Assembly: GCA_017853205.1 (NCBI GenBank)
Contig: JAFMKB010000006.1
Span: forward strand, 6,906 to 70,905
DNA: 64,000 nucleotides
Direction of reading: 5' to 3'
Source: Gammaproteobacteria bacterium
GTDB taxonomy: Bacteria > Pseudomonadota > Gammaproteobacteria > Pseudomonadales > Pseudohongiellaceae
Below the pieces are notes generated by a model. That model searched no databases. It was not told where the DNA came from and saw only the letters and a program-made list of their open reading frames with translations. Made by a program: the position numbers and the translations under genes. Shown here in pieces: positions 10,962 to 64,000 of the stretch (position 1 is its first letter; each line of letters starts with the position of its first letter).

Positions 10962-11018
10962 GCCTGTGCTTTAGAGAAAGGTTCAGGTCATTTTTTTCTT
11001 GCCGCGTATAGAACACCC

Positions 11019-45623: not shown

Positions 45624-45656
45624 GGCGCTCCTTGCGTCAATTACGGATAAGAAATT

Positions 45657-46604
45657 ATGTTGAGCAAGCAATACGATTTTATGGGTGTAAGGCGCGCGGC
45701 GGCGATGGGGTCGCTTCTTTTAGTGCTGATTTCACTCGGATCACTCGCCACGCGTGGTTTAGACTTTGGTCTTGATTTTACCAGCGGGACGTCGGTGCGT
45801 CTGAACTTCTCTGAAGCGGTTGCGATCGCCGATGTTAATTCGGCCCTGACGGATGGCGGCTATGGTGATGCGGTGGTCGTAAGCTTCGGCTCTGATCGAG
45901 ATATTCGTATTATCTTGCCTGTCGACGAATCGGTCGCCGAGGCAGATCAGGCAAGCCAAGCCGTGCGTGTTGGAGAAACAATTACCGCGCTGCTCTCGGC
46001 GACCACGCCAGCGGATATTACGCTCGAGGGGTCCGACTATGTAAGTGCGAAAGTGGGTACTGAGCTAGCGGAGCAGGGTGGCTTAGGTATGCTCGTCGCG
46101 CTGTGTATCATCATGGTCTATATCGCCGTGCGCTTCCAGTTTAAGTTCTCTGTCGGCGCAGTCGTTGCCCTCGCGCACGACTTGATCATCACGTTGGGGC
46201 TTTTCTCTGTCTTTGGCATGGAATTTAACCTCAATACCCTAGCGGCAATGCTTGCGATTATCGGCTATTCCCTCAACGATACCATCGTGGTATCAGATAG
46301 GATTCGAGAGAACTTCCGGCGTATGCGCAGCGGTTCACCATCGGACATGGTTAATGCGTCTTTGAATCAAACGCTAGGGCGAACTATCATCACGTCATTC
46401 ACGACACTTCTCGTGTTGGTATCAATACTGTTAGTCGGTGGTGAATCCACTCAAGGTTTCGCGATCGCGCTAATTATTGGGGTCGTTGTAGGTACCTATT
46501 CATCCATTTATATTGCCTCGAATGTGATTCTTATGATGAATGTGACGCGCGAGGACCTGATGATTCCTATCAAGGAAGGATCGGAGTTGGACGATATCCC
46601 CTAG
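45657..46604 (+). CDS. secF: Protein translocase subunit SecF
   Basis: FGLDFTSGT, GYSLNDTIVVSDRIRE. Confidence 0.95.
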   Translation: MLSKQYDFMGVRRAAAMGSLLLVLISLGSLATRGLDFGLDFTSGTSVRLNFSEAVAIADVNSALTDGGYGDAVVVSFGSDRDIRIILPVDESVAEADQASQAVRVGETITALLSATTPADITLEGSDYVSAKVGTELAEQGGLGMLVALCIIMVYIAVRFQFKFSVGAVVALAHDLIITLGLFSVFGMEFNLNTLAAMLAIIGYSLNDTIVVSDRIRENFRRMRSGSPSDMVNASLNQTLGRTIITSFTTLLVLVSILLVGGESTQGFAIALIIGVVVGTYSSIYIASNVILMMNVTREDLMIPIKEGSELDDIP

Positions 46605-46659
46605 TCGATGAGCCAATTGTGGAAACCCGTCCAGACGTGCCCTCGGTTGGTCTTTAGGT

Positions 46660-48978
46660 GTGTATCCACTAAACAGAAGAGTAGACGTATTGCCTTATTC
46701 AATTGGTCACACGGCTAACGCGGTAAGAGCGACAGGTTGGCGCGCGGCTTTACTGCTCTTTTATATAGCACTTATGGCTCCTGCGATTGCGCAGAATGCG
46801 AGTGACTTTCCTCGCCCAGAGAGTTTAGAGCCCGCTGTCCAGTTCTGGATTCGAGTCTACACCGAAGTGGATACTCAGAGCGGATTTCTTCACGATGCCG
46901 AGCACCTGGATGTTATTTACACAGCTCTACCGCTAGACAGAAAGCAGATAGAAGCCAAGCGTGAAGCGATCAAGGCGGCCTTAACCGTTTTGTCTACAGG
47001 TAAGCGAACAGGCCTCACGGCTGAGGAACAGCAAGTGCTTGCCCTCTGGCCCTCAAACGTTAGCAACCAAACGCTAAAAATCGCTTCTGATAATGTCCGC
47101 TGGCAACTTGGTCAGTCGAATAGATTTCTCGCTGGCTTGCGCCGATCAGGTGCTTATCGCGAGCACATTCAAAAGGTCATCGCTGCGAAAAATCTGCCTT
47201 CACAGCTTGTCGTTCTCCCGCATGTCGAATCATCTTTTAATCCGGGCGCTTATTCTTCGGCGGATGCCGCTGGGATGTGGCAATTTACGCGTGCCACCGG
47301 ACAGCGATTTCTGCGTATAGATCATATCGTCGACGAGCGCATGGACCCTTATATCGCAGCCGAGGCGGCTATGAGCCTGCTCGAATATAACTACCGAGTG
47401 TTGGGCACATGGCCACTTGCACTGACGGCCTACAATCATGGCGCTGGGGGTATCGCGCGGGCCGTGCGCGAAATAGGATCGAGTAATATCGAAGACATCG
47501 TTGCTAACTACAAAGGCAGGAGATTTGGTTTTGCTTCGCGCAACTTTTACGCCCAGTTTCTTGCGGTAAATGAAGTAGAAAAGCGAGCTGAGAGTTTTTT
47601 CGGCAAAGTCGACTACAACTCTGCGCCAAATTTCACCGAGTTTGAGACCGACGCCTATATCGATGCCGAAGTATTCGCCCGCAGTGCGAACATTAGCCTT
47701 GCGCAATTGAAGGCAGACAATCCGGCACTCAGGCCTGTGGTTTGGGAAGGACAGAAGCGAATCCCGCGCGGCTTTAAAATGAAACTGCGCGATGCAAAAG
47801 TGACGCCCCAAGAGCTGCTTGCGAGCATCGATGGCGATTATAAATTTGTTGTTCAGACCCCCGATGTAGCCTACACCGTTGTGAGAGGAGACAGCTTGTC
47901 TGCAATCGCGAAGCGTTTTAACACGTCAGTATCACGTCTTGTTGCGCTGAACCAGTTAACGAGCAGTCACCGCATTCAAATCGGTCAGCGCATACTTTTG
48001 CCGCAGGATGAGACATCTCTTGCTGCGCAGTCGCAACAGGCACCCGCTGATGGCATCTATACCGTGGCACGAGGCGATACGGTGTCTACGATCGCTCGCC
48101 GCTTCTCCGTGGGCGAAACCGCATTGCTACGTCTGAATGGTATCGAAGACGCGCATCGAATTTATCCCGGTCAAGAACTGCGCTTGCCGGGCCTCTATGC
48201 CGCTCAGCCTCAGCTTGTGGCAACTGAACGCGCACCAGCATCGCTGGTAGACCCTGTTGAGATTGCTACCGTTGAGGGTGAAGCCGAGCGTGGTGTGGAC
48301 AGCCCTGAGAGTAGAGTCGCAGAGTCTTCGCAGACGCTTTCCGAGATCGAGAGAATCGTGCCAGAGGCTATCGCGGAACAAGGCTCTGATGCAGACGCGC
48401 CGCAGGCATCGGAGGCTATTGCCGTAGAATTAGCCTTGGTGGACACGGTCGCCGTTGATATTGACGCGGTAGCCGAAGAGGTGGCAACGGCCACGAACGA
48501 TAATACGCCGGTCGAGAGCGATGCCGAACTAGCCGAGGCGCTGAGTGCCGATCCCGCCGACTATTCGGTAGCCAGCGACGACTCGATCGAGGTGCAGGCG
48601 ACAGAGACGCTGGGTCATTATGCCGATTGGCTTGCTGTGCGCGCTTGGGATGTGAGGCGATTAAACGGGATGGCCTACAGCGATCCGGTGATCGTAGGAA
48701 AGCGACTCACGCTGAGTTTTACGAAGGTGTCGCGACCCGAGTTCGAACGCAGACGAAAAGATTATCATTCCACGCTACAGCGAGAGTTTTTCGCGCAATA
48801 TAGGATTCGTGACGTCGAGGAATACACGATAAGACGCAACGAGAACATCGGCACTATTGCTCGGAATCGCTATTCCGCTCCCCTATGGCTTGTGCGTCAG
48901 TACAATCCCGAGCTCGACTTCAATCGCATTCAGATTGGTCAGAAAGTTGTCTTCCCACTGCTGCAGAGCGTCGAGTAG
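46660..48978 (+). CDS. MltD-like lytic murein transglycosylase with three LysM domains
   Basis: SLT catalytic block ESSFNPGAYSSADAAGMWQF. LysM motifs YTVVRGDSLSAIAKRF, YTVARGDTVSTIARRF and YTIRRNENIGTIARNRY. An acidic spacer lies between LysM2 and LysM3. Confidence 0.8.
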   Translation: MYPLNRRVDVLPYSIGHTANAVRATGWRAALLLFYIALMAPAIAQNASDFPRPESLEPAVQFWIRVYTEVDTQSGFLHDAEHLDVIYTALPLDRKQIEAKREAIKAALTVLSTGKRTGLTAEEQQVLALWPSNVSNQTLKIASDNVRWQLGQSNRFLAGLRRSGAYREHIQKVIAAKNLPSQLVVLPHVESSFNPGAYSSADAAGMWQFTRATGQRFLRIDHIVDERMDPYIAAEAAMSLLEYNYRVLGTWPLALTAYNHGAGGIARAVREIGSSNIEDIVANYKGRRFGFASRNFYAQFLAVNEVEKRAESFFGKVDYNSAPNFTEFETDAYIDAEVFARSANISLAQLKADNPALRPVVWEGQKRIPRGFKMKLRDAKVTPQELLASIDGDYKFVVQTPDVAYTVVRGDSLSAIAKRFNTSVSRLVALNQLTSSHRIQIGQRILLPQDETSLAAQSQQAPADGIYTVARGDTVSTIARRFSVGETALLRLNGIEDAHRIYPGQELRLPGLYAAQPQLVATERAPASLVDPVEIATVEGEAERGVDSPESRVAESSQTLSEIERIVPEAIAEQGSDADAPQASEAIAVELALVDTVAVDIDAVAEEVATATNDNTPVESDAELAEALSADPADYSVASDDSIEVQATETLGHYADWLAVRAWDVRRLNGMAYSDPVIVGKRLTLSFTKVSRPEFERRRKDYHSTLQREFFAQYRIRDVEEYTIRRNENIGTIARNRYSAPLWLVRQYNPELDFNRIQIGQKVVFPLLQSVE

Positions 48979-48993: not shown

Positions 48994-50427
48994 TTAGTTT
49001 TTTCGGTCGTCAGCTTCGTCAAGAGTATCGTTGCTTTTCGCAAGAATGGTCTCGGTAAAGAGTTGCTGGTATCGGTTCGTTAGGTCTTCTGTGAATAACT
49101 TCACTAGTGACACTTTTGGAAGCGCTTTTCGGTTGGCCTTATCTGTTTGCCAGCGTTTTAATTTCTCGACTGCAGACTTCGCAGCGCTACTGTCTCCGTG
49201 CGCCACGGAGTAAAGATTCTCCGGAGGGAGATATTCTGGATAGACGAGGTCGTCTGGTGCAAGTGGGCAGCACCCCGCGATTGTGGCCTCTTGGACCGCG
49301 AGTCCTTGAAAGTCATGCAGCGCAGTGGATAAAACGACGTCGCAGCTGCTGATCAAGGCATGGTATTGCGCAGCATTTTCGAGGAAACCGAAGTGACCCT
49401 CGTCTAAGTTCATTGCGTCGTAGTGTGCTTTGAGTAATTGCCGGCACTTCGCGAATTCCTCGGGCGCCTGTTTGAACTGTTGGCCTACGATATGCAGTCG
49501 GCAGTTGAGTTTCTCCCCGCAGATGCGTTTGATTATTGCCAACAGCCTCTCAGGTCCCTTGTCATACTCCCAGCGATGATTCCATACAACCTCGAGCGTT
49601 GAGTGCGTGCTTTGCCGCACTGAGTTTGCCTCTCGCACTGGCACCGGCGAGGATGCGGTCGAAAGTGCGGTCGGCAGTGCAGCTGGGAGTACAGGCACTG
49701 GCAGGACGTGGGAGTTTTCGAGCTGCACCGCTAAACCTTTTGGTACGTGGTCTGGTAAGCGGCGAAGCAACGCTTTGGCACCAGCTAGAAAAGTACTGCG
49801 ATTATAGTCACTGTTAAACACAAGTGAGTCTGCACAGAGCGCGGCATAGAGAGGAACGAGTTGTGTTTCTGCATTATTGCGCTGTGCATCACGTGTGGGA
49901 TAGGCAAACTGGTTTTCGTGGAAATACAGCAGAGTTGGCAATTTCGCCAAAGCAGGTATGAATCCACGCAGCGTACTCAGATCAACCATCGATGTAGCTA
50001 CTAAAAGATCATAAGGCCTGCTGAGAGACTCTCGTTGATTATAAGCAAAGCTCAAGGCGTTGCCGCGTAGGCGCCAACTAAAATGGCGTGGCGGAAGGGC
50101 CAATGACGTCCACTCATGCATCGGTAATAGGTGCATGAGATTCTCTCGCCAAAGGCGATGACTGGCTGCATCGTAGCCGGACAATATCAAGATCCGGAGG
50201 CTTTTTGTGTCGGGCATGGCGGGTTCGGCTGAATTTCGGTGAATAGGTTTTGCATTCTTTGCTCGCGCAGAGTAATTTCTGTCGCTACTCAAATTCAAAG
50301 TATGAAGGGGACGAGTGTGACGATCAAACTCTATGGCATGCCGCTCAGTAATTATTACAACATGGTGAAAACCGTTCTTCTCGAGAAAGGCATGGATTTC
50401 GAGGAAGTACTGGTACTCCCCAACCAA
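48994..50427 (-). CDS. GT4-type glycosyltransferase with DUF3524 N-domain, homologue of eukaryotic GTDC1/QTMAN (tRNA-queuosine alpha-mannosyltransferase)
   Basis: LRILILSGYDAASHRLW.., LYFHENQFAYP, LVFNSDYNRSTFL and LPDHVPK match blocks I recall from human GTDC1. The likely real start is the Met at 50217 (MPDTKSLRILIL), and the 70-aa N-terminal extension in the track is probably not translated. Confidence 0.7.
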   Translation of the reverse strand: MVGEYQYFLEIHAFLEKNGFHHVVIITERHAIEFDRHTRPLHTLNLSSDRNYSARAKNAKPIHRNSAEPAMPDTKSLRILILSGYDAASHRLWRENLMHLLPMHEWTSLALPPRHFSWRLRGNALSFAYNQRESLSRPYDLLVATSMVDLSTLRGFIPALAKLPTLLYFHENQFAYPTRDAQRNNAETQLVPLYAALCADSLVFNSDYNRSTFLAGAKALLRRLPDHVPKGLAVQLENSHVLPVPVLPAALPTALSTASSPVPVREANSVRQSTHSTLEVVWNHRWEYDKGPERLLAIIKRICGEKLNCRLHIVGQQFKQAPEEFAKCRQLLKAHYDAMNLDEGHFGFLENAAQYHALISSCDVVLSTALHDFQGLAVQEATIAGCCPLAPDDLVYPEYLPPENLYSVAHGDSSAAKSAVEKLKRWQTDKANRKALPKVSLVKLFTEDLTNRYQQLFTETILAKSNDTLDEADDRKN

Positions 50428-52837: not shown

Positions 52838-52865
52838 TTGGCGGGAATCTCTTGTGCATTATGAT
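52838..52865 (+). promoter_or_regulatory. Candidate sigma-70 promoter for the MoxR-linked operon
   Basis: TTGGCG (52838-52843), a 16-nt spacer, then TATGAT (52860-52865). This is ~78 nt upstream of the ATG at 52943. Confidence 0.3.
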
Positions 52866-52870
52866 AGACA

Positions 52871-55800
52871 GTGGCGAGAGCAGGTCTAACGGTTGCTAGA
52901 TGGCGTTTTAGTTACATAGCATTTAACTCTTCCAGGATACGCATGACGGCTCCGACTCTCGATAGTCTGCGCGACACCCTTGATGGTCTTCAGAGGAGGC
53001 AGGCTAGACTACTACTCGCGAGACAGCTTGGCTTCGCATTAGTGGCCGCCTGCGCAGTAATCGCTGCCAGTCTCGTACTAGTCGCGAACTTTGCCTCGTC
53101 GGCGGCAGCGGTTCTGCTGGTCGCTATCGTGGGTACTACCCTTATATTTTCTATCTGCTCTGTCGCATGGCGTCAAAGTCATCGGGCTCAGGTCGATCAA
53201 AAAGCACTCGCCCTCTATGTAGAGGAAAAGTTCCCGGATCTCGAACAGCGCCTGCTTACCTCTATCGAATTTTCGCAAGCCGGGAAAAAGTCCTCACAGG
53301 CAGGAGTCTCGCCTGCCTTTGTAGAACAGCTGATTAACGATGCACGCTCACATGTTGACCTGCAGAGACAACAGGTGGAGCGGGTAGGCTCCTCGCGAGA
53401 ATCCGTTATTGCATTGGTGGCCGGATTTTCTGCGTGTTTGGCATTGGTGCTGCTACTACAAGAGTTTGCTCAACTCCGACAGGCTGCGCAGCGCCTTGTA
53501 TGGCCCTTTGCACTCGAGGAAACCGTCGATGTGACGTCGACCGCAATGCCCATCTCGCTTCTCGTTGAACCCGGCGATATTGAAATGCAGAGAGGCTCGC
53601 CGCTGACCGTGACAGTGAGGGTTGAAAACGAGCAGCCGGGCGCCCTGACGCTAAGACTGCAAGACGATCGATTGAATTGGCGCGACTATCCTATGCTCCT
53701 CGATTCGAGTGATTCGAATGGAGCAACCTTCAGCTATTATTTGCCGGCGGTGGTCAAAGATTCGAACTATCTCATAAGTCTTGCAGGAGAGGAGCAAAGC
53801 TCGCGGCAGTATCAGATTAACCTGTACGATCTTCCGGAGATTGAACAGATCGATGTCGCCATGGACTTTCCCGACTACACAGGCGAAGAGGACAGAATCG
53901 AGTTTGATGGCGGTGATATCGTTGCGGCTGAGGGCACGGAAATCACTCTTACTGTTACTTTTAACAAGCCTGTAGCTCGCGCTGAGATCCAGTTCTCGGG
54001 CGCGGAAAGCGAAACAGATAGAGAATATATTAACGGCAGTCTCGATGTTGATGGGCTGCAGGCGACCACACGTTTTACCGTAGCGAGCGATGGTGTTTAT
54101 CGAATTACCGCAGCGGATCTGCAAGGACTTCAGAGCGAGTCGCCGCTAGATTACTACATTCGCGCTATTGAAGATCAGCCTCCACAGTTCACGTTGCGTA
54201 GACCGGGAGCAGACAGAGATGTTATGCCACTCGAAGAGGTAGTGATTGAGGTTGATGCTAGCGACGACTATGGATTGGGCGAATTCATTCTCAATTACGC
54301 AGTGGTAGGCGAGGAAGATAAAGAGGTCGACTTTTTACCTGCCGAGTCAGTTCGTTCAGCGCAGGGGTCGACACTGCTCTATCTTGAGGATCTCGCGGTT
54401 GAGCCAGGCGATTTTATTAGCTACTACTTAACGCTTGCCGATAATAACGCGCTAAAGGGTCCGAGTGAGGTGGTGTCTGACATTTACTTCCTTGAGGTTA
54501 TACCAACCGATCAAGAATTCCGTCGTTCGCAGCAGCAAGGCGGTGGTGGCGGTGGAGGCGGCCAAGGAGGCGGCGAAAGCAGCGCGCTTGTTTCGGTGCA
54601 AAAAGACATCATTGCGGCGACGTGGAAGCTGCGAAATCGCCTGCGAGACGCCTCTAGCACTGACATCGAGGCTGATGCAGAGATCATCGCCGAGAGTCAG
54701 CGAGAGGCAACGGGCCGCGCTAAGATGTCAATCGATCGACTATCTGAGCGCTTGAGTTTCTCCGACGACAGTTATGATCTCGCTGTCGAAAATCTATCTC
54801 TCGCTATTGAGCAGATGAATTTAGCTGCGAACGATCTGGACAGCCTGCAAATAACAACTGCGCTCAAGCCTGAACAACTCGCTCTGCAATATGTTCTAAA
54901 GGCAGAGGCGAATATCAATCGCACCGACATAAGCATGAATCAGAATAGTGGCGGTGGCGGTGGAGGCGGCGCTCAGCAAGAGCGGGAAGACCTTCGCGAG
55001 CTCTTCGAGATGGAGATGGGGCAGCTTGAAAACCGCTACGAAACACCAAATAGCGCTAACCAAGCGGGCGGAACGAACGCCGAAGAAGTAAACAAACTTG
55101 AAGAATTGGCCAGACGTCAGGAGGCGTTAACTCGTGCTCAGCGAGCTCTTGCGCGTCGCGAGCAAGAGCTTGCTGAGGAGCAGCGTCGTCGAGAGCTTGA
55201 GCGGCTGCGAAGGCAGCAGGAACAGCTGTCTGCCGATGTCGAAAAACTAGCCCGCGAATTAGCTCAGAATGGTCAGGGTCAGCAGTCGCAGCCACGCAAT
55301 TCAGATTCACCTCAGCAAGGCCAACAAAATCAGCAAAGACAATTAGCAGGGCAGGGTCAGCAGTCGACTCAACAGACCGGAGCGGAGCAGTCAGGTGACC
55401 CTAGCGCTCAGGCGGCCATTGAACGTGCGCTGGAGCAAATGCAACAGGCGGCAGCCAGTGATAGCGCGGCTATTGCTGCTGCGCAAGGCCAAAAAGCGCT
55501 CGAGAGTTTGCGTGATCAGCAGCGCGAACTAAGCGAGGCGGGTGAAAGTTCGGTGTCGCAGATCGCCAGACGCTTGGGCGAGCGCGGGCAGGCGCTTGTT
55601 CGTAATCAGCAGGCGCTACAGGAAGGTCTTGCGGAGGCTAGCAGAAATCAGGGGCTGGGTCAGACTCGCCGCGAGGCGCGACGCGACGAAGCACTGCAGG
55701 CCCTTCTTGAGGCGCAGCGCCAACAGCAGCGCGATATCGAGGAAATCGAGGATATGCTCCGCGCGGTTGTGACGCGCGGTGAGAGCGAAGACAGGAGCTT

Positions 55801-56488
55801 GCTCACTCAGGCTCAGGCGGCAACCCGTGACTTGAAGCCGATTCGCGACGAAATGGCGACGAGCAATCGCGTTCTACGCAATGGCATGCTCAACCTTGCC
55901 ATCGATATGGAGCAGGAACTTGGCGAACAGATTCAGCAGCTGGCGCAGAGCCTGGCACAATTAAATCCCTCGCAAACGCAGGATTCCGCGAGCTCGACTC
56001 GGCAAGTAGCAGGGGACGCCCAGCAGCTGCGGCAGCAGATCGAAAGCCTCAGCCAACAGGCTGCCGAATTTAATCAGCGTGGCGAGACGGCGGGCGATGG
56101 AAATGCGCCCTCCCTTGCGCAGATGCGAGAGCAGTTAGAGAGTAGTCAAGCACTTGCCGACAGTCTGTCGCAGCAGCTTGCGCAGCAGCGCGGTGGATCC
56201 GCACAGGCGCTGCGCGGCGACTCCAATACGGTAGGAACAGCGAGATCTATCAGACAGCAGTTGTCTAGGCAGGACATAGAAGCGTTTCTCGCACAGCCTG
56301 AGCTTCTTAAAGCCCTTCTGCAACCCATCGTTGAGCTCGAGGGCGCGTTGCGTGCGCAAGCCGAGTTAGAGAGCGCGGCGACGCAGCTCTATAGCGCGGA
56401 TGACGAAACAATTCCAGACGCCTATCGAGAGCTAGTGGAGCAGTACTATCGAACCCTGTCAGAGGGTGATAGTGGAGGAGTTCGGTAG
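52871..56488 (+). CDS. Giant membrane-anchored Gly/Gln-rich coiled-coil protein (DUF4175/TIGR02302-like)
   Basis: The likely start is the ATG at 52943 (AGGA 5 nt upstream). There are 2-3 N-terminal TM helices and a beta-rich middle. Two poly-Gly tracts lie at nt 54539-54577 and 54950-54970. About 500 aa are Q/E/R/A-rich with heptad-like character, and the C-terminus reads PDAYRELVEQYYRTLSEG. Confidence 0.6.
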   Translation: MARAGLTVARWRFSYIAFNSSRIRMTAPTLDSLRDTLDGLQRRQARLLLARQLGFALVAACAVIAASLVLVANFASSAAAVLLVAIVGTTLIFSICSVAWRQSHRAQVDQKALALYVEEKFPDLEQRLLTSIEFSQAGKKSSQAGVSPAFVEQLINDARSHVDLQRQQVERVGSSRESVIALVAGFSACLALVLLLQEFAQLRQAAQRLVWPFALEETVDVTSTAMPISLLVEPGDIEMQRGSPLTVTVRVENEQPGALTLRLQDDRLNWRDYPMLLDSSDSNGATFSYYLPAVVKDSNYLISLAGEEQSSRQYQINLYDLPEIEQIDVAMDFPDYTGEEDRIEFDGGDIVAAEGTEITLTVTFNKPVARAEIQFSGAESETDREYINGSLDVDGLQATTRFTVASDGVYRITAADLQGLQSESPLDYYIRAIEDQPPQFTLRRPGADRDVMPLEEVVIEVDASDDYGLGEFILNYAVVGEEDKEVDFLPAESVRSAQGSTLLYLEDLAVEPGDFISYYLTLADNNALKGPSEVVSDIYFLEVIPTDQEFRRSQQQGGGGGGGGQGGGESSALVSVQKDIIAATWKLRNRLRDASSTDIEADAEIIAESQREATGRAKMSIDRLSERLSFSDDSYDLAVENLSLAIEQMNLAANDLDSLQITTALKPEQLALQYVLKAEANINRTDISMNQNSGGGGGGGAQQEREDLRELFEMEMGQLENRYETPNSANQAGGTNAEEVNKLEELARRQEALTRAQRALARREQELAEEQRRRELERLRRQQEQLSADVEKLARELAQNGQGQQSQPRNSDSPQQGQQNQQRQLAGQGQQSTQQTGAEQSGDPSAQAAIERALEQMQQAAASDSAAIAAAQGQKALESLRDQQRELSEAGESSVSQIARRLGERGQALVRNQQALQEGLAEASRNQGLGQTRREARRDEALQALLEAQRQQQRDIEEIEDMLRAVVTRGESEDRSLLTQAQAATRDLKPIRDEMATSNRVLRNGMLNLAIDMEQELGEQIQQLAQSLAQLNPSQTQDSASSTRQVAGDAQQLRQQIESLSQQAAEFNQRGETAGDGNAPSLAQMREQLESSQALADSLSQQLAQQRGGSAQALRGDSNTVGTARSIRQQLSRQDIEAFLAQPELLKALLQPIVELEGALRAQAELESAATQLYSADDETIPDAYRELVEQYYRTLSEGDSGGVR

Positions 56489-56490
56489 TT

Positions 56491-58836
56491 ATGCAGTCTT
56501 CCGATCTCTCTTTTTTAGAGGCATTGCGTGCTGGCACACTCAGTTTCGCCTATGGCATTCCGCCTTGGGCCTTCTTCGCCGCGTCGCTCCTCGTGATTGC
56601 ACTCGTCTGGTTTGGCTACACAAAGACGACGAGACCATTAAGCCTGCGCTGGCGCGTTGGGCTCGTCGCTCTCCGGTCTGCGGTGCTCGTGGTTATCATG
56701 GTTTGTTTGCTAAGGCCGGTCGTGATCGATCAGGAGGTCATTCCACAGGAGACTTTTTTCGCGGTCCTCGTCGATAATTCTGCCAGCATGAAAATTGCGG
56801 ATATGCCCGGCGGCCAGACGCGCACGGAGGCTGCAGAAGACTCTCTGTCTCGGACTGGTTTTTTGGATACGCTCGCCGAAGACTACCAATTGCGATTTTT
56901 TGGCTTTGGTGGTGAGACTCGACGGGCGAGTGAACTCGCGACAATTGGCGCTGATTTCGATAATGACGAAGCCGCGATAGCCTTTAGTAAGACTGCTATA
57001 GGCGATGCCCTGAATTATGTCGATGACCAGTTAGGTAGCTTGCCATTGGGCGGTGTTTTGCTGATTAGCGACGGCGCAGACAACAGCGGTACGGATGCTT
57101 CCATCGCTGCTCGCAGATACGCCGCCAGTGGTGTCCCAGTATTTACCCTTGGCGTGGGAATGCCAACACTTCCAAATGACGTTGGCATAGAAGGTGTTTT
57201 AACAACCGAAACCATTTTGGAAGGATCCGTTTTTACAGCTCAAATCCGGCTCGTTCAAGCCGGTTTCGATAACGAGCGAGTTCGTCTTCGTGTTTTCGAT
57301 AATGAGCGTGAGGTAGCTAGCCGTGAAGTAATTCTGGCTCCGGGTGATATTACCCAACGTTTCGAAATTGAACTCACCCCTGAGCGCGACGAGGCAATTG
57401 TTTACCGTTTAGAAGTTGAATTGCTCGATCGCGGTAAGGCAAATCAGGAGCGAGTGCTCGAGAATAATGAGTACGAGTTTCTTGTTGATAACACCCCCAA
57501 GCCCGCTCTCGATATACTTTTCATAGAGGGGCATCCGCGCAACGAGTATAAGTTTATTCAGCGAGCCGTACGGGGAGATAAGTCCTTGCGCCTCGCGACC
57601 TACCTGCGCACAGGGCCAGAAAAATTCTACCGACAGGGAATCGAGTCTCCGACTGAATTAAGCGATGGGTTTCCGCGCGAGCGCGACGCGCTGTTTGAGT
57701 ATGAAGCGATTATTCTCGGCGACATAGAGCAGGAGTTTTTTGATGCCGAGCAACTTGCGCTGCTCGAAGAGTTTGTAGCCGAGCGGGGGGGAGGGCTTCT
57801 GCTATCGGGAAGAGTTGATGAAGGCTTTATCGGTACGCCACTTGCCTCAATTGCGCCCGTGAATTTGGTTGAAGAGTCGCTACTGCCCCAACCTTTGCAG
57901 GGGGGCATTCGTCGCGGTGATCATCCAACCGGTGCGCTTTTTTCGCCGCGGTTGACCGCGGCTGGACGCATTTCACCGCTGCTGCGGCTCGTCGCCGAAG
58001 AGACTGCGAATAGGGATTTTTGGTCGCAGTTGCCGCCTCTTCAGGGGGTCTATGTAAGTGGCCGAATCAAGCCCGGCGCCTCAGTATTGCTCGAACATCC
58101 GGGCCTCGAGTATCAGAATCAGCCGCTGCCAATTATTGTTTCGCAGCGATACGGTTCTGGCAGAAGTATGAGTGTTGCTACCGCAAGCACATGGCGCTGG
58201 CAGATGATGCTACCTGTTGCCGATCAAACTCAGGAAAAGCTCTGGCGGCAACTGCTCAGGTGGCTTGCAGTTGGTGCTAAAGAGCGCATTACACTCAGTT
58301 TCGATCGGGAATCCTATAATGTTGGTGACACGGTAAGAGTCGAAGCAACTGTCCGTGACGCGAGCTACAACGCCGACAATGATGCGACATTATGGTTACA
58401 ACGCGAAGACCCACTTGGTGCTCTCAGCGAAATCCCCATGCAGTGGCTGATTAAGGAGGAGGGCGTCTATAGTGCGGAGTTCCTCGCAGAAGATGTAGGT
58501 GTGAATAATCTGCGAATCGACGTCACAAGTGCTGCCGGAGAAGGGCGTGCGGAAAACACCGAGGCGAGTGCATCACTCGTCGTGACTCCCTCACTGCGTG
58601 AATATTCGAATCCAGGACTCGACGCAGGCATTCTCCAACGACTAGCTGACACGACAGGCGGAGATTACGCCACCATTGACAATGCCGCGTCGCTCATCTC
58701 TTCCATTCGCAACACGCCGAACGCCTATTCCAAGGAGGTGATGACAGACCTTTGGGATAGTCCTTGGCTACTTGGGTTGCTCATTTTGTTGCTGTGTCTG
58801 GATTGGACGCTGCGTCGCAGCAAGGGGCTGTCTTAG
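56491..58836 (+). CDS. BatA-type double-TM-anchored protein with VWA-like and GATase1-like domains and a C-terminal TM
   Basis: ATG 2 nt after the upstream stop, with GGAGGAG 10 nt upstream. Two N-terminal TMs and MIDAS-like DNSAS (nt 56773-56787) with ..LLISDGADNSG. A GATase1-like block reads ILFIEGHPRNEYKF..AIILGD..ERGGGLLLSGR. The tail TM is WLLGLLILLLCLDW. Confidence 0.65.
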   Translation: MQSSDLSFLEALRAGTLSFAYGIPPWAFFAASLLVIALVWFGYTKTTRPLSLRWRVGLVALRSAVLVVIMVCLLRPVVIDQEVIPQETFFAVLVDNSASMKIADMPGGQTRTEAAEDSLSRTGFLDTLAEDYQLRFFGFGGETRRASELATIGADFDNDEAAIAFSKTAIGDALNYVDDQLGSLPLGGVLLISDGADNSGTDASIAARRYAASGVPVFTLGVGMPTLPNDVGIEGVLTTETILEGSVFTAQIRLVQAGFDNERVRLRVFDNEREVASREVILAPGDITQRFEIELTPERDEAIVYRLEVELLDRGKANQERVLENNEYEFLVDNTPKPALDILFIEGHPRNEYKFIQRAVRGDKSLRLATYLRTGPEKFYRQGIESPTELSDGFPRERDALFEYEAIILGDIEQEFFDAEQLALLEEFVAERGGGLLLSGRVDEGFIGTPLASIAPVNLVEESLLPQPLQGGIRRGDHPTGALFSPRLTAAGRISPLLRLVAEETANRDFWSQLPPLQGVYVSGRIKPGASVLLEHPGLEYQNQPLPIIVSQRYGSGRSMSVATASTWRWQMMLPVADQTQEKLWRQLLRWLAVGAKERITLSFDRESYNVGDTVRVEATVRDASYNADNDATLWLQREDPLGALSEIPMQWLIKEEGVYSAEFLAEDVGVNNLRIDVTSAAGEGRAENTEASASLVVTPSLREYSNPGLDAGILQRLADTTGGDYATIDNAASLISSIRNTPNAYSKEVMTDLWDSPWLLGLLILLLCLDWTLRRSKGLS

Positions 58837-59876
58837 TGAAACGCCTGCTTAGCAAAGCGCTGGCGCCAGCGTTGTTAATTCTTGGTCCACTGACCGCGAT
58901 AGGTCAGAGTGGAGAACACCGTGAATTATTCGCGCAATCAGCGACTACGTCAAAGTATGCAATGATCCTAACCGGTGCCACGGTCGGTCAAGAAAACGAA
59001 GCAAAGTTCCGCCAACTTTCTCTTTCTCTTCACGATATTCTCGCGAGTGATTATGGCTATAGCACCGCTGGGATAGAGCTTCTACTGAGCGAAACCAATG
59101 CTGATTCGCGTGCAGATGGAATGTCGGACAGAGACGGGATAATTGCGAGCTTAAGCAGGCTGAAGGAAAAACTAAAAACTGGCGACCAGCTCGCTGTTTT
59201 TATGCTCGGTCATGGCACGGGTGCCGATGATGAAGCGAAATTTAATCTCCGTGGGCCAGACCTTACCGGCGTGGAATTTGCCCGTTTGTTCGATGGCTTT
59301 GCCGAGCAAGACCTAATTTTCGTAAATACAACGAGTGCGAGCTACGGATTCTCCACGGCTCTTGCTCGTGAAGTGGCAGGAGAAGGACGCATTGTCATTT
59401 CTGCCACTCGCTCTTCATCGGAGAAATTTGACCCTTATTTCCCGCGTTATTTTATCGAGGGTTTGGCTGATAAGCGCGCCGATCGCGATAAAAACACTCG
59501 AGTTTCGTTACTCGAAGCGTTCACCTACGCAAAGAATAACGTCGAAGAATTTTACGAAGAATCAGGCAGGCTGGCTGCCGAGCATGCCGGGCTAGACGAC
59601 AATGGCGACGCTCTCTTCGCTCTTGCACCAGCGCCTGGCGAAAGCGACGGGAGCCTCGCAGAGATTGCGTTTATCGATGCCGCGGATGCGGACGATGACA
59701 CCTTGTCTGCAGAACGTTTAGCGCTTAAACGACGGATGCAAACACTTGAGCGCAATATATTACTTCTGCGTGGCCGCAAGGCGGAATATCTAGAAGGCGA
59801 CTATTGGCTGCAACTTGAGACTTTACTTGTTGATCTTGCAAAAACGACGGAGCAATTCAATGTTCAAGCGCCCTGA
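58836..59876 (+). CDS. Secreted legumain/caspase-like (peptidase C13-like) protein lacking the expected catalytic Cys
   Basis: The GTG at 58836 overlaps the upstream TAG (TAGTG). Signal peptide KRLLSKALAPALLILGPLTAIGQS. FMLGHGTG (His at nt 59211) is followed by IFVNTTSASYGF (nt 59322-59342) where C13 enzymes carry ..ACxSG. The track start at 58764 lies inside the upstream gene. Confidence 0.5.
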   Translation: MKRLLSKALAPALLILGPLTAIGQSGEHRELFAQSATTSKYAMILTGATVGQENEAKFRQLSLSLHDILASDYGYSTAGIELLLSETNADSRADGMSDRDGIIASLSRLKEKLKTGDQLAVFMLGHGTGADDEAKFNLRGPDLTGVEFARLFDGFAEQDLIFVNTTSASYGFSTALAREVAGEGRIVISATRSSSEKFDPYFPRYFIEGLADKRADRDKNTRVSLLEAFTYAKNNVEEFYEESGRLAAEHAGLDDNGDALFALAPAPGESDGSLAEIAFIDAADADDDTLSAERLALKRRMQTLERNILLLRGRKAEYLEGDYWLQLETLLVDLAKTTEQFNVQAP

Positions 59877-62610
59877 TACTTTTTTAATAGACGCGGCGAA
59901 ACGCAGACCCTCGCGCGTAAAATGCTGCCTCTATGCCGTTATCTATTCTGTAGTATTTATTACGTCGCATGCGACGGCACAGAGCTTGAATGATGTCTTA
60001 GCGGATGCCGATTCTCCTTTAGCGCAAGGAGAGCAATTGTTTCTTCGTGGATCCTATGCCGCGGCGAGTGACGCATTTATGCGTGCGCAAGGTTTGGACC
60101 TAGAAGAGGGTATTGTTGGCGCGAGTCGGTCGTTAGCAATGATGGGTGATAGGGCGCAGGCGATCGCGGTTTGTGAAAAAGCCTTGGCGAACGCCACACC
60201 GCCAGATTTGCCTCTAATCGCAACTCAACTCGCTGAATTGAGACTCGCGCAGGGAGAGTCTGCGCGCGCACTCACGTTATTTTCACAAATTGATGCGGGT
60301 CTCGATCAGCCGCCGCTCCGCACTCTCGTTAAAAACGGTGAAGCGTTGCAATTGGTCGGTCGACGCGATGACGCTAAATCGCAGCTTCAGCGTGCACTCG
60401 ATCGCTACACTGATGGCCTAGTTTTTTCCTCTCAAGATATTGGGATGGTCGCGCGCGCAAGTTGGCTTCTTGGCGAATACCATGATGCGAATAGTCTTTT
60501 CAGCGAGGCGACGAGACTCGACCCAAATAATCTCGAAGCGCAGACCCTTTGGGGGGACTTATTCCTCGAAAAATACAATGCGGCTGATGCGCAGCGATCC
60601 TACCAAGATGTACTTACGATAAACGCGCGCTATTTGCCGGCACTTGCCGGCATTGCACGCGTCAGCGGCGACATGGGAGCATTGGAGCGTGCTCTTTCAA
60701 TTAATCCGAACTACGTTCCTGCGCTCGAGGTACAGGCGCAGCTATTTTTTGTTAACGACAGGGAAGACGACGCGCTTGCCACGATAAATAGTGTACTCGA
60801 GCTAAATCCAGAATCGCTAAAAAGCCTAAGTCTTCTGGGAGCAAAAGCCGCCCTTGAGGAGCGCCTTCAGGACTTCGCCGAAATCCGTGCGCGCGTTGAC
60901 GCCTTCAGTCCTTCGAATCCCCAGTTTCTTGGCGACGTTGCCGACACGCTCGGTCGTCAGTATCGATTTGTCGAGGCTGTGGCTTTGGCGCGCGAGGCAA
61001 TCGCATCGGACCCAAGCTATTGGCAAGGCTACACGCTTCTAGGAAGTAATCTTATCCGCCTAGGTGAGGAGGTCGAGGGGCGTGAAAATTTAGAGATTGG
61101 TTTCGATAACGATCCATTCAACGTCATGACCTCGAATATGCTCAAGGTGTATGACACGCTCGACAGCTATGTGACAGTTGAAAGTGAGCATTTCAAAGTA
61201 AATTTATCTGAGAAAGATGAACAGATTTTATGGCCCTATCTGGAGCCATTGCTCGAAGAGAGTTGGGACACGCTAACCGCAAAATACGGATTCGAACCAG
61301 AAGGACCAATACTCATTCAGGTATTCGAGAACTCGCAGGATTTCGCCGTCCGCTCCGTCGGGCTTCCCGATATTGGTCCGCTTGTGGGTATCTGTTTTGG
61401 GAAGGTTATTACGCTAATCTCGCCTGATACTCTGTCGGCAAACTGGCAGGAGATTGTATGGCACGAGTTCGCGCATGTGATAACGCTACAGATGACTGGC
61501 AACAAATTACCGCGCTGGTTATCAGAAGGGATATCGGTGTGGGAAGAGCGCGAGGGAAGGCCCTATTGGGGACGGAGCCAAGGGCTCGACTTAGTGAGAG
61601 CGTGGGAGCAGGGTAAACTCCTCCCGTTCGCAGATTTAAATAAAGGCTTTAGCGGTGCACAAAATAGTGCGGATCTGGGCTTCGCCTATTTTCAATCGTA
61701 TTTGGTTATTGACTATATAACGCGAGAATATGGCTTCGAGGGTCTGCGTTCCCTGGTGATGCAATACGACGAAATAAAATCAGACGCTGAGAGATTTAGC
61801 GACGCGTTCTCAATTTCACTAGAAGATTTCGACGCGGGGTTTCTCTCTTGGGTCGAGCAGCGAGTTGCTGAGATAGACGTCTACGTACACAAAGAAGACG
61901 CCCCTGATGAAGGCGAGGGCCATGGTCATGGCGTGCGCGAAAATTCGAGCGCGATTCTTGCCGAACTTTATAACAATGCGTCGCTAAAGCAGCACATGAG
62001 CGCGCGCATCGAAGCAAATCCGAAGGACTTTCAGGCGTACCTCCAGATGGGTATCGTGCTGTTTAAGGAAGAGGCATTTGACGAAGCAAAAGTTTACTTA
62101 GACGCAGCCTACGCCATGCTCCCAGAATATACTGGTTACCCGAGTCCGCCGCTCGTGCTTGCGCAGATCTACGAGAAAGAAGGCAATGAGGCTGCTCGCC
62201 TCGAGCAACTCAGTCTGCTGCTCGAGAATCAGCAGCATGACTACAGTTCAGCGATCACTTTAGCCGAGGCAGCTTTCGCTAGCGACGACCTAGAGCGCGC
62301 AGCTTACTTTATTGACCGAGCCATTCAGGTAGATCCTTATCGCCGCGAAGTCCACGACTTACGGGCGCGTCTAGCCTCTCTGCAGAACGACACTGCGTTA
62401 GCGGTGCTCGAAAACGAAGTCATTGTGACTCTCGAGGTCGATGACCCCGTCGAGGCGCGAACTAATCTGGCAGAGGCGTATTTAAACAATGGCGAATTGG
62501 AGTTGGCCAAGCGCAACGTGCTGAGCGCATTAGAGATCGCACCGAGCTATGTTCGCGCGCAAAAAGTTCTCCTGCGCGCAGTCGATGGAGCGAGCGGAAA
62601 CAATGACTAG
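59860..62610 (+). CDS. TPR-repeat protein with an embedded gluzincin (peptidase MA-like) domain
   Basis: The likely ATG at 59860 (GGAG 7 nt upstream) overlaps the upstream gene by 17 nt. Signal/anchor segment. TPR-like repeats lie both N- and C-terminal to WHEFAHV (HEFAH at nt 61462-61476), with LSEGISVWEE providing the third-ligand Glu. Confidence 0.65.
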   Translation: MFKRPDTFLIDAAKRRPSRVKCCLYAVIYSVVFITSHATAQSLNDVLADADSPLAQGEQLFLRGSYAAASDAFMRAQGLDLEEGIVGASRSLAMMGDRAQAIAVCEKALANATPPDLPLIATQLAELRLAQGESARALTLFSQIDAGLDQPPLRTLVKNGEALQLVGRRDDAKSQLQRALDRYTDGLVFSSQDIGMVARASWLLGEYHDANSLFSEATRLDPNNLEAQTLWGDLFLEKYNAADAQRSYQDVLTINARYLPALAGIARVSGDMGALERALSINPNYVPALEVQAQLFFVNDREDDALATINSVLELNPESLKSLSLLGAKAALEERLQDFAEIRARVDAFSPSNPQFLGDVADTLGRQYRFVEAVALAREAIASDPSYWQGYTLLGSNLIRLGEEVEGRENLEIGFDNDPFNVMTSNMLKVYDTLDSYVTVESEHFKVNLSEKDEQILWPYLEPLLEESWDTLTAKYGFEPEGPILIQVFENSQDFAVRSVGLPDIGPLVGICFGKVITLISPDTLSANWQEIVWHEFAHVITLQMTGNKLPRWLSEGISVWEEREGRPYWGRSQGLDLVRAWEQGKLLPFADLNKGFSGAQNSADLGFAYFQSYLVIDYITREYGFEGLRSLVMQYDEIKSDAERFSDAFSISLEDFDAGFLSWVEQRVAEIDVYVHKEDAPDEGEGHGHGVRENSSAILAELYNNASLKQHMSARIEANPKDFQAYLQMGIVLFKEEAFDEAKVYLDAAYAMLPEYTGYPSPPLVLAQIYEKEGNEAARLEQLSLLLENQQHDYSSAITLAEAAFASDDLERAAYFIDRAIQVDPYRREVHDLRARLASLQNDTALAVLENEVIVTLEVDDPVEARTNLAEAYLNNGELELAKRNVLSALEIAPSYVRAQKVLLRAVDGASGNND

Positions 62611-62612
62611 AT

Positions 62613-63533
62613 GTGAGAGGCTCGCGTCGTCTCGGGGGCAGCAACCCGGTGAGTAAAGGCACACGCGAGCATAAGTCAACGAGCAGAACTGGCGCCGCTA
62701 TAGGTCTGTTTTTCTGTGTTGTCGCACCATTGTTCGCTTTTTCTTCCGACGCGCTCTCACAAAATTTACGATTCGATGAACTTGTCCCCGATGCTGAGGA
62801 TCTGTCGGTATACGGCGACGAAATCACCGAGTTCCAATGGGTGCGTGGGCGCTATACGAATCATGGTGCCGGTCGAGGCGGGTTTGGTCGGCGCGGCGGT
62901 GGTTGGTGGGATACTGACTTTCCAGATTCTGATGAGAATTTTCTTCGAGGTGTGCAGCGCTATACAAACGTCGATACCAATCCTCGCAATTACACGTTTG
63001 TTGAATTAACTGATCCGCGTCTCTTCGAAAATATTTTTCTTTACATGAACTGGAAGCGTGTCCCCATCGGCTATCCGATGAGTGGTCCTAATTTTACTGC
63101 ACCCGAGGTCGAGGCGCTGCGCGAGTTTATGCTCCGAGGCGGTTTCGTGCTAGTCGACGACTTTTGGGGGCAGCCACATCTTGATGATATGTTTGTCGAG
63201 ATCCGAAAAATTTTCCCTGAGCGCGAGATTGTTCGGCTTGAGTCGGATCACGAGGTCTTTCATATTTTCTTTGATATCGATGAAGTCGCTCAGGTGCCTG
63301 GAAGGATGGTGACGTGGGATTATGGTGGTTTCCTCAATAAAGATGACCCTCAGTATCCGCCAGCAGTCTATGCTGTTTTAGACGACGACGGCAGGGTGAT
63401 GCTTGCGGCTAATTACAACACCGATCTCGGCGATGGTTGGGAGCATACGTTTTATGCGGGCTACCCCACACAGTCGACTAACGATGCCTATAAGATAGGA
63501 ATAAATTATTTGATCTATGCGTTTAGCCATTAA
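62613..63533 (+). CDS. DUF4159-domain protein, exported
   Basis: The GTG is 2 nt after the upstream stop (an alternative GTG lies at 62649). Signal peptide AAIGLFFCVVAPLFAFSSDA. The LYMNWKRVP..FTAPEVEALREFMLRGGFVLVDDFWG block is typical of DUF4159. Confidence 0.6.
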   Translation: MRGSRRLGGSNPVSKGTREHKSTSRTGAAIGLFFCVVAPLFAFSSDALSQNLRFDELVPDAEDLSVYGDEITEFQWVRGRYTNHGAGRGGFGRRGGGWWDTDFPDSDENFLRGVQRYTNVDTNPRNYTFVELTDPRLFENIFLYMNWKRVPIGYPMSGPNFTAPEVEALREFMLRGGFVLVDDFWGQPHLDDMFVEIRKIFPEREIVRLESDHEVFHIFFDIDEVAQVPGRMVTWDYGGFLNKDDPQYPPAVYAVLDDDGRVMLAANYNTDLGDGWEHTFYAGYPTQSTNDAYKIGINYLIYAFSH

Positions 63534-63589
63534 TCTTCGTTTGGCATATCGTTAACTAACAGGCACAGAATTTAATACAGGACTCGACA

Positions 63590-64000
63590 ATGACAGATTT
63601 TAATCAGCAGGAAGGGGCAGAAATGGAGAGCAATGAGTCTGTTGAGGCTAACGCCTCAACGGTTGAAACAACAGCGAGTGCAGAAAATAGTGCACTTGAA
63701 ACTCCTGACGATCTCGCGCTAGTAAAACGAATGCAGCAGGGCCACCAGCAGATCGTCGACGAGATCCGAAAGGTTATTATCGGTCAGGAAGCGGTTGTTG
63801 ATGAGCTTCTCATTGCCCTTTTTTCGGGCGGACATTGTCTCGTAACCGGTGTTCCGGGTCTCGCAAAGACACTCCTGATTAAAACTGTCGCAGACATTTT
63901 GCAGGTAAACTTCAGTCGTATTCAGTTTACCCCAGACTTGATGCCGGCTGACGTTGTCGGGGCCGAGATAGTTGAAGAGAAAGACGGCAAGCGTGGGCTC
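63590..64000 (+). CDS. MoxR-family AAA+ ATPase, 3' end beyond window
   Basis: It is absent from the ORF track because no stop is reached. My translation from the ATG at 63590 is MTDFNQQEGAE...IRKVIIGQEAVVDELLIALFSGGHCLVTGVPGLAKTLLIKTVADIL..FSRIQFTPDLMPADVVG, with the MoxR Walker A and signature region. Confidence 0.85.
   Translation, partial: MTDFNQQEGAEMESNESVEANASTVETTASAENSALETPDDLALVKRMQQGHQQIVDEIRKVIIGQEAVVDELLIALFSGGHCLVTGVPGLAKTLLIKTVADILQVNFSRIQFTPDLMPADVVGAEIVEEKDGKRGL

Follow-up and report, generated by a model that had tools for sequence, protein, structure and literature searches.

An expanded MoxR-DUF58-BatA-type gene cluster with a predicted peptidase pair in a Pseudohongiellaceae gammaproteobacterium

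Eight genes at the window edge

The 64,000-nucleotide (nt) window analysed here, a stretch of contig JAFMKB010000006.1 from a gammaproteobacterium of the Pseudohongiellaceae, ends in a run of genes that we read as an expanded MoxR-DUF58-BatA-type cell-envelope system. Its genes lie on the plus strand, and we number them P1 to P8. P1 (52943-56488, ATG start, 1181 amino acids (aa)) encodes a DUF4175-like giant predicted to sit in the inner membrane. P2 (56491-58836, 781 aa) encodes a protein with a GATase1-like domain and a VWA domain that carries a metal-ion-dependent adhesion site (MIDAS); it appears to be a paralogue of P8. P3 (58836-59876, 346 aa) is a predicted exported pseudo-peptidase of legumain/C13 fold, and P4 (59860-62610, 916 aa) a predicted exported or anchored protein in which a Peptidase_MA_2 (gluzincin) domain is flanked by TPRs. 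P5 (62613-63533, 306 aa) is a predicted exported DUF4159 protein. P6, or moxR (63590-64000), runs past the window end, so that the window encodes 136 of the 368 aa of a MoxR AAA+ ATPase, its N-terminal part.

The six genes are closely packed. GGAGGAG stands ahead of the TAG/ATG that joins P1 to P2 (56486-56493), and P2 and P3 share TAGTG (58834-58838). P3 and P4 overlap by 17 nt (59860-59876), P4 and P5 meet at TAG-AT-GTG (62608-62615), and 56 nt separate P5 from the moxR ATG at 63590. A first-pass annotation of the window had described six co-directional, tightly packed genes and listed these five junctions; all six open reading frames lie on the plus strand as described, and every junction detail matched the sequence exactly.

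Public contigs extend the cluster by two genes. Searching with the exact P5 protein recovered six near-identical contigs (L001-L006) from ENA metagenomes and the metagenome-assembled genome GCA_017851825.1, and gene callers had placed the same genes on all six. The four comparable contigs differ from the last 11.4 kb of the window by 13-39 mismatches. Because each operon gene also has hundreds of homologues, the six reading frames are real genes rather than chance. Downstream on these contigs, the 368-aa moxR is followed after a 70-nt gap by P7, a DUF58 gene (312 aa); P8 (652 aa) abuts P7, and a convergent RND pump gene comes next. The first-pass annotation had anticipated just such a DUF58/VWA partner and BatA-like gene after moxR. 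With P7 and P8 the predicted operon comprises eight genes, P1-P8, of which the window holds the first five and a half. The source is an uncultured bacterium of the Pseudomonadales; the nearest GTDB genome, 'Pseudomonadales bacterium YM.18', encodes a P3 that is 92% identical, and other relatives are labelled Pseudohongiellaceae/OM182.

A MoxR-DUF58-BatA core

P6 and P7 are the predicted cytoplasmic components. P6 matches AAA_3 at 67.6 bits over the window fragment and at 209.9 bits over the full protein from L001 (model positions 1-131), and its Walker A motif GVPGLAKT lies within the window (63848-63871). The bpMoxR model follows as a secondary match at 42.6 bits. On these profiles P6 is a classical AAA_3 MoxR, as read at first pass. 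P7 matches DUF58 at 165.3 bits. An AAA_3 MoxR with Walker A, an adjoining DUF58 protein and anchored MIDAS-VWA proteins are all present, the set that defines operons of MoxR proper with DUF58 and VWA partners.

P8 supplies the BatA-type component. It matches BatA at 67 bits, TIGR02226 at 74 bits, VWA_2 at 47 bits and ThuA at 29 bits, and ends in a transmembrane (TM) helix. The MIDAS residues D98, S100, S102, T166 and D194 are conserved, and P18, H22, F34 and R62, in the region of the BatA-type hairpin, are invariant across the P8 family.

P2 has the same plan in a more diverged form. Two N-terminal TM helices are followed by a VWA domain, an Ig-like segment, a GATase1_like (ThuA-type) domain, an MG2-like sandwich and a C-terminal TM helix. 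The VWA domain contains the MIDAS motif DNSAS (residue 95; 56773-56787), and D95, S97, S99 and D194 are invariant in the family. Pfam matches of P2 itself are weak (GATase1_like 21 bits; VWA E=0.01), and most of the P2 relatives listed have PF07090, with about a quarter having PF00092 as well. An NCBIfam search of P2, P3 and P5 gave no matches. Aligned to the P8 family with hhalign, P2 reaches 99.8% probability (E 5e-29, 523 columns), and by this comparison P2 and P8 are paralogues. Both begin with two TM helices joined by a basic loop and continue through VWA, Ig-like and ThuA/GATase1-like parts to a C-terminal TM helix. The first-pass label for P2, a VWA protein with a BatA anchor, therefore survives as kinship to the BatA protein P8, whereas the BatA and TIGR02226 models themselves miss P2. 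From hydropathy and the positive-inside rule, the bulk of P2 and P8 would lie in the periplasm. The VWA domain of Borrelia BB0173, a BatA-type VWA protein, has been shown experimentally to face that compartment (PMC5700661). Counting P7, three proteins of the cluster carry MIDAS-type motifs (P2, P7 and P8).

P5 adds a third ThuA-like module. It matches Pfam DUF4159 (PF13709) at 124.9 bits against a cut-off of 25.9, in keeping with its first-pass name, and its family profile matches a solved, uncharacterised structure, 4i66 (Hoch_4089), at E 1.5e-14. The fold is class-I-glutamine-amidotransferase-like or ThuA-like. Structural evidence led Pfam to group DUF4159, ThuA and GATase1_like in one clan (PMC4702930), and hhalign relates P5 to the ThuA-like part of P8 at 78% probability. 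None of the three ThuA-like modules (P2, P5 and P8) has a conserved Cys, which makes amidotransferase chemistry unlikely.

A predicted zinc peptidase and a proposed legumain-like partner

P4 has the features of a working metallopeptidase. It matches Peptidase_MA_2 at 58.4 bits (cut-off 32.4) along with many TPR models. Its HExxH zinc motif reads HEFAH (residues 535-539; 61462-61476), and Glu556 (61525-61527) supplies the third ligand. HExxH followed by PRW[LF]sEG, with its glutamate, occurs in 50 of 50 full-length orthologues, so P4 is probably an active zinc peptidase. The first-pass description of a TPR protein with an intact HExxH...E site fits these matches.

P3 adopts a protease fold with its nucleophile replaced. 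Its AlphaFold2 (AF2) model is confident, with a predicted local distance difference test score (pLDDT) of 91.8. The best Foldseek matches were the legumain zymogen 6ysa (E 1e-8), the glycosylphosphatidylinositol transamidase PIGK, caspase-11 and metacaspases, with legumain and PIGK at E 1e-8 to 1e-7. The family profile matches metacaspase as far as the catalytic His. That residue is retained as His126 (59211-59213) in an invariant His-Gly motif. The catalytic-Cys position of relatives holds Ala168, followed by an invariant Ser169 (59337-59342), and the protein has no cysteine at all. Across the family, 133 of 150 representatives lack Cys at the Ala168 position, and most of the family has Ala, Ser or Gly there. 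Given the C13 fold, the change of Cys to Ala168 and the total lack of cysteine, P3 is, as modelled, a dead C13-fold protein, and the first-pass reading of a C13-like protein without its nucleophile has gained a structural basis. A position two residues earlier, Thr166, had been considered for the nucleophile as a motif-based guess; alignment with Cys-bearing relatives points to Ala168.

The wider P3 family ties this fold to recognised peptidases. P3 itself finds no Pfam match even at E<5 and so falls short of the PF01650 threshold. Its relatives P0310 and P0335 pass Peptidase_C13 at 27.9 and 31.0 bits (cut-off 22.8). A minority of relatives (P0310, P0321, P0268 and P0305) keep a Cys within TTSCSG, aligned to Ala168, and the family probably includes some active C13 enzymes. 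The contig recovered for Cys-bearing P0321 is just 1.8 kb long.

Legumain and PIGK (C13, clan CD) superpose best on P3 and share its invariant His-Gly after a hydrophobic strand. P3 differs from them in lacking the Cys and in being a bacterial, predicted periplasmic protein encoded in a MoxR operon. It also has two additions: a putative EF-hand-like loop, DRDKNTRVSLLE (residues 216-227; 59481-59516), in which D216, D218, S224 and E227 are invariant, and after it a C-terminal helical hairpin.

Gene fusions join the two peptidase-fold proteins. P0326 (1156 aa) and P0374 (788 aa) each combine TPR-Peptidase_MA_2-TPR with a C-terminal P3-like domain, an argument for joint action of the zinc peptidase with the dead legumain-like protein. 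P0326 had also been considered as a P2-P3 fusion; BLAST ruled this out, and its Pfam matches are those of a P4-P3 fusion. The P0326 gene (L088 10001-13471) lies far from any MoxR gene and adjoins a rhomboid gene.

A giant membrane protein distantly related to DUF4175

P1 is best described, from its profile matches, as a distant member or a sister group of DUF4175. Its own score against PF13779 is 23.9 bits, below the cut-off of 27.3, and covers model positions 185-325 of 825, whereas four of five orthologues from other phyla exceed the cut-off (30-49 bits). Some relatives are named 'DUF4175 family protein' by NCBI, and P1 had no match in NCBIfam, TIGR02302 included. The first-pass name thus holds for the family, with P1 itself below threshold.

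Hydropathy places three TM helices near the N terminus of P1, at approximately residues 29-172. Residues 205-410 form tandem Ig-like beta-sandwiches, the confident part of the AF2 model, and match Ig domains. Glycine runs occur at residues 533-544 and 670-676, and 19 of the 50 residues at 774-823 are Gln. A long helical region rich in Gln, Glu, Ala and Arg extends to a conserved C-terminal motif, P..YR.LV..YY. The model resolves this region into several helices of 30-64 residues, split by low-complexity linkers, at low confidence. The glycine hinges and Gln-rich stretch seen at first pass are thus present, but a single long coiled coil is not demonstrated. Over its whole length the model scores pLDDT 58.8 with a predicted template modelling score of 0.29, and a fold search with it returned generic Ig-domain matches only. 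The best-conserved stretch across phyla, residues 411-566 (54173-54640), bears the motifs DDYG, PGDF, SDIxFLEVxP…EF and QKxxxATWKL; it is also the part that AlphaFold models worst (pLDDT 23-46).

One gene order, rotated across phyla

The cluster recurs in several phyla. In a 50%-identity library, 1939 representatives belong to the P3 family at E≤1e-3. A scan of species-representative genomes with a 16-sequence P3 alignment found at least 545 stretches encoding a P3 relative, and we searched the best 80 of these loci with all eight proteins. They span Gammaproteobacteria, Gemmatimonadota, Acidobacteriota, Desulfobacterales and others, and at every locus the genes share a strand. Full flanks were available for 34 loci: P2, P7 and P8 are each present in 31 of these, P1 and P6 in 30, P4 in 23 and P5 in 20; the figure for P5 is an underestimate, since in one arrangement the flank ends at P5/P6. 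The first-pass annotation had suggested such a neighbourhood survey, and the gene set proved to be co-conserved over several phyla. No other gene family common to all arrangements was found at the loci.

Three arrangements account for this order. Pseudohongiellaceae and other Gammaproteobacteria have P1-P2-P3-P4-P5-P6-P7-P8 (arrangement A). Gemmatimonadota, Blastocatellia and Pyrinomonadaceae have (second DUF4159)-P2-P3-P4-P5-P6-P7-P8-P1 (arrangement B). Vicinamibacterales and others have (P5)-P6-P7-P8-P1-P2-P3 (arrangement C), the arrangement whose flank ends at P5/P6, with P4 elsewhere in the genome beside a second copy of P3. The three are cyclic permutations of a single gene order. Two features once taken as peculiar to this locus dissolve in this comparison. 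That structural genes precede moxR is mere rotation, given P6-P7-P8-P1-P2-P3 and P2-…-P8-P1 elsewhere; and the two protease-fold proteins and the giant, called atypical at first pass, are standard parts of a multi-phylum cluster.

All eight families are also encoded by a cultured bacterium, Gemmatirosa kalamazoonensis KBS708, whose 1.1-Mb replicon carries the genes in arrangement B. Searches of plasmids by tblastn gave almost no matches with P5 and P8; a MoxR query led to the Gemmatirosa locus and to one in Sinorhizobium. In Gemmatimonadota-type loci the second DUF4159 paralogue (147-150 bits) stands directly 5' of P2, as at L051 6711-7511 and L068 6813-7640 and also in L036, L066, L081 and L083.

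Relation to known systems

The closest known relative is a rhizobial envelope operon. In an annotated operon of Sinorhizobium meliloti Ak57 (L089), genes for a MoxR family ATPase and a DUF58 protein are followed by a gene for a 937-aa 'DUF4159 domain-containing protein' and a frameshifted fourth gene. The third protein matches BatA_N at 72 bits, its body aligns with the P8 profile (hhalign 98.3% over 499 columns), and its C terminus matches DUF4159 at 176 bits. The fourth gene aligns with the P2 profile at 98.9% by hhalign. On these alignments the Sinorhizobium core is P6-P7-(P8+P5 fusion)-P2. R. leguminosarum RL3499-RL3502 was reportedly described by Vanderlinde and colleagues in 2011 as a MoxR, a DUF58 protein and two transmembrane proteins. 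The Sinorhizobium operon fits that description and would be the counterpart of the operon known as cmdA-D, the name under which RL3499-RL3502 has an envelope phenotype (PMC5700661, bioRxiv 10.1101/551135). Mutants of R. leguminosarum cmd have envelope and morphology defects and show a genetic interaction with the periplasmic TPR protein TtpA (bioRxiv 10.1101/551135).

By these matches the window system is a cmd-type four-gene core plus P1, P3 and P4. The two share MoxR followed by DUF58, a BatA_N protein with a P8-like body, a P2-like protein and DUF4159, which gives sequence-level backing to the first-pass view that a Rhizobium-type envelope operon is among the nearest relatives. They differ in that DUF4159 is fused to the C terminus of the BatA-type protein in Sinorhizobium, whereas P5 is separate and predicted to be exported. 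The MIDAS of the Sinorhizobium BatA-type protein looks degenerate (DNSWA), whereas that of P8 is intact. The Sinorhizobium operon is without the DUF4175-like giant, the C13-fold protein and the TPR-gluzincin, all three of which the eight-gene operon has, and the gene order of the latter is rotated by comparison. The fourth Sinorhizobium gene (L089 13663-16403) falls into three or more reading frames and is absent from the gene table, as a pseudogene or through sequencing error. Although its label reads 'plasmid pSymB', the 3.7-Mb record carries chromosome-type housekeeping genes.

Bat operons share the core and differ in their accessories. Like the eight-gene operon, the Bacteroides aerotolerance (Bat) operon and related clusters (those of spirochaetes, Francisella and Riemerella, and Arc2) have an AAA_3 MoxR followed by DUF58, BatA_N-anchored MIDAS-VWA protein(s) and TPR proteins. 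Bat-type systems put MoxR first, their VWA faces the periplasm (BB0173), and their mutants have stress or envelope phenotypes. Riemerella Bat/MoxR mutants, for example, are altered in stress resistance (PMC11834572), and the Pseudomonas aeruginosa MoxR/VWF cluster Arc2 (PA4317-23) protects against ColA, a toxin delivered by a type VI secretion system (T6SS; PMC8926400). By Pfam, none of the eight proteins is a BatD, an SH3 (BatE) or a VWA+TPR (BatB) protein. Among the eight, TPRs occur in P4 alone, where they flank a metallopeptidase, and the VWA proteins carry ThuA/GATase1-like modules. DUF4159, DUF4175-like and C13-fold proteins are parts of the present system and are not known from Bat operons. 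Judged on the BatB/C/D/E proteins, the cluster falls outside the Bat operon sensu stricto (BatA-E).

The literature that we searched held no description of the eight-gene cluster. It mentioned DUF4159 in one Pfam database paper alone, and DUF4175 for the Acinetobacter protein AdvA alone, an unrelated protein.

Discussion

We identify the operon with high confidence as an expanded MoxR(AAA+)-DUF58-BatA-type VWA cell-envelope system. What the system does is more tentative. The cytoplasmic components would be MoxR (P6) and DUF58 (P7), a VWA-like partner, and the other six proteins would face the periplasm: P8 and P2 anchored by the conserved two-helix hairpin and a C-terminal helix, P1 anchored by three helices, and P3, P4 and P5 exported. 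Working through conserved loops that the BatA-type hairpins would expose to the cytoplasm, MoxR-DUF58 may spend ATP on assembling or remodelling the membrane proteins. The result would be a periplasmic scaffold built from two intact MIDAS-VWA domains, the three ThuA/GATase1-like modules of P2, P5 and P8, and the long P1; at first pass, too, a periplasm-spanning scaffold dependent on MoxR-VWA had been proposed. This scaffold would place the peptidase pair, in which P4 would be the active zinc enzyme and P3, catalytically dead, a legumain-like partner with a role in substrate binding or in the regulation of P4. The pair would then cleave an envelope substrate, with envelope integrity or stress tolerance as the output. 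We favour a single system because of the gene spacing, the co-conservation and the P4-P3 and P8+P5 fusions, along with the conserved MIDAS and zinc sites, the predicted topology and the mutant phenotypes of related operons. The mechanism as stated, periplasmic assembly driven by MoxR-DUF58 with a peptidase pair, remains rather doubtful, and identification and mechanism taken together, though the best explanation of the locus, stand in our judgement at an even balance.

Several points weigh against this proposal. The operon is predicted from its gene spacing, and any contact among the eight proteins is hypothetical. The P1 model is poor, so that a scaffold role for P1 is a guess from composition. 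P3, P4 and P5 are predicted to be exported on hydropathy calls. The Sinorhizobium operon is inferred, from its composition, to be the orthologue of RL3499-RL3502. Finally, the Vicinamibacterales-type MoxR cluster is without P4, which lies elsewhere beside, or fused to, its own copy of P3; the peptidase pair can thus work unlinked to moxR.

That last point feeds the strongest competing explanation, which we consider unlikely: two separate systems that stand side by side. One would be a MoxR-DUF58-BatA/VWA-DUF4159 module (P5-P8, P2 and perhaps P1) and the other a P3/P4 peptidase module, uncoupled from the first while sharing its transcript in some lineages. Stand-alone P4-P3 pairs in the Vicinamibacterales loci L043, L044, L055 and L062 fit this division, as do the distance of the P4-P3 fusion P0326 (L088) from MoxR genes and an alphaproteobacterial core operon that does without P3 and P4. 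Conservation of order argues the other way. Wherever P2 was found, at 31 of the 34 loci with full flanks, the next family is P3, and this holds for each of the three arrangements. Even the Vicinamibacterales type retains a copy of P3 at the end of its MoxR cluster, and in arrangements A and B P2 and P5 enclose the P3-P4 pair, with stop codons that overlap start codons.

A dedicated maturation chaperone in the manner of NorQD, CoxDEF, CbbQO or MxaRS is improbable. MoxR and the VWA proteins would then insert a metal or cofactor into, or otherwise activate, a single enzyme of the periplasm or membrane, either P4 (zinc loading) or one encoded elsewhere. Characterised MoxR-VWA pairs reportedly act as maturation chaperones (PMC9976466, PMC12276312; cited in PMC8926400). 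The three MIDAS-type motifs (P2, P7 and P8) and the predicted metalloenzyme P4 would suit such a role. However, no conserved client enzyme other than P4 was found beside the cluster, the core exists without P4 in Alphaproteobacteria and in Vicinamibacterales-type loci, and maturation chaperone systems are not known to carry giant membrane proteins or ThuA-like modules.

Last, an anti-phage or anti-competitor conflict system of the ternary MoxR-vWA kind, in which caspase-like and other peptidases serve as effectors, is very improbable: MoxR, vWA, a caspase-superfamily protein, TPR-type repeats and a peptidase are the vocabulary of Kaur, Burroughs, Iyer and Aravind 2020 (PMC7159879), bpMoxR is a secondary match of P6 and Arc2 defends against a T6SS toxin, but P6 scores 210 bits against AAA_3 and 43 against bpMoxR, Pfam finds no VMAP, iSTAND, FtsH or beta-propeller third component among the eight proteins, the VWA is of DUF58/BatA and not CoxE type, all components but P6 and P7 are predicted to be exported or membrane-bound, caspase-fold P3 appears dead, the composition is fixed rather than varying in its effectors, PADLOC returned two marginal matches, both to the ATPase, and nothing significant, and the cluster sits amid housekeeping genes (secDF, an MltD-like transglycosylase, NUDIX) with G+C like its surroundings and a single order across phyla.

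Of the envelope-system proposal we can also frame a stronger form, which is a long shot. All eight proteins would make up one trans-membrane machine, with MoxR-DUF58 exerting force through the BatA-type hairpins to switch on the periplasmic assembly, and P3 presenting substrates to P4 along a P1 that spans the periplasm. If true, proteolysis or remodelling would be under ATP control in a compartment free of ATP, and the whole Bat/cmd/Arc2 class would gain a first mechanistic handle.

To our knowledge, few bacterial gene clusters that lack a known mechanism are as widespread as the MoxR-DUF58-BatA operons. Mutants in Bacteroides, Rhizobium, Brucella relatives, Francisella, spirochaetes and Pseudomonas have phenotypes that concern the envelope, stress tolerance and virulence. 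The core of the window cluster is of this known kind; its extra parts extend the core, create no new category and overturn nothing known. The expanded version does add parts with readable chemistry: a predicted zinc peptidase; its putative legumain-like partner, catalytically dead and in some organisms fused to the peptidase; and a giant membrane protein. Comparison also puts DUF4159 in the Sinorhizobium cmd-type operon, fused to a BatA-type protein, and identifies a cultured host with the full gene set in Gemmatirosa kalamazoonensis. For specialists, the pairing of a legumain-like protein with a zinc peptidase and the DUF4159 fusion are useful rather than startling. Together they yield testable hypotheses on binding partners and cleavage, which makes the MoxR/Bat/cmd question more tractable.

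Neighbouring genes and minor features

The genes upstream of the operon (secD, secF, a LysM-SLT transglycosylase, a glycosyltransferase, SDR and NUDIX) are ordinary housekeeping genes. secD, secF and the LysM+SLT (MltD-like) lytic transglycosylase occupy 43740-48978 on the plus strand, just 5' of the locus. The glycosyltransferase (48994-50427, minus strand) combines QTMAN_N, the N-terminal domain of a tRNA-queuosine mannosyltransferase (181 bits), with Glycos_transf_1. The immediate neighbours, NUDIX and SDR among them, recur in Pseudohongiellaceae-type loci alone, which suggests synteny within the lineage and not membership of the system. G+C content showed no break between the operon and its surroundings.

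The promoter-like element TTGGCG-16-TATGAT (52838-52865, plus strand) lies within the 165 nt that separate P1 from the NUDIX gene. It is present as noted at first pass, but as a 9/12 match to consensus it carries no statistical weight, since the region has 10 matches of this grade and shuffled sequence 7.2±2.7; as a promoter it is plausible solely through its position. An alternative GTG start for P1 is possible at 52871, and gene callers chose the ATG at 52943 on the public contigs. An Rfam scan of the whole window matched no family, which argues against a riboswitch or leader RNA ahead of P1. Terminator and promoter scans gave counts not above those of shuffled sequence, with no clear terminator after P8.

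Two further genes recur beside relatives of the cluster. In ten Pseudohongiellaceae loci, a small exported protein (226-275 aa) is encoded after P8 on the same strand, as at L008 12326-13084, with a TPR_12 score of 29.7 bits against a cut-off of 30.1; it is absent from the window lineage, where the convergent RND pump gene follows P8 (L001). In seven Vicinamibacterales-type loci (L038, L042, L044, L055, L062, L076 and L080), which comprise both MoxR clusters and stand-alone P4-P3 pairs, a rhomboid protease gene lies on the opposite strand. We looked at its position or motif in L038 and L062; in L038 it occupies 10904-11569 on the minus strand, scores 122 bits and starts 25 nt after P3.

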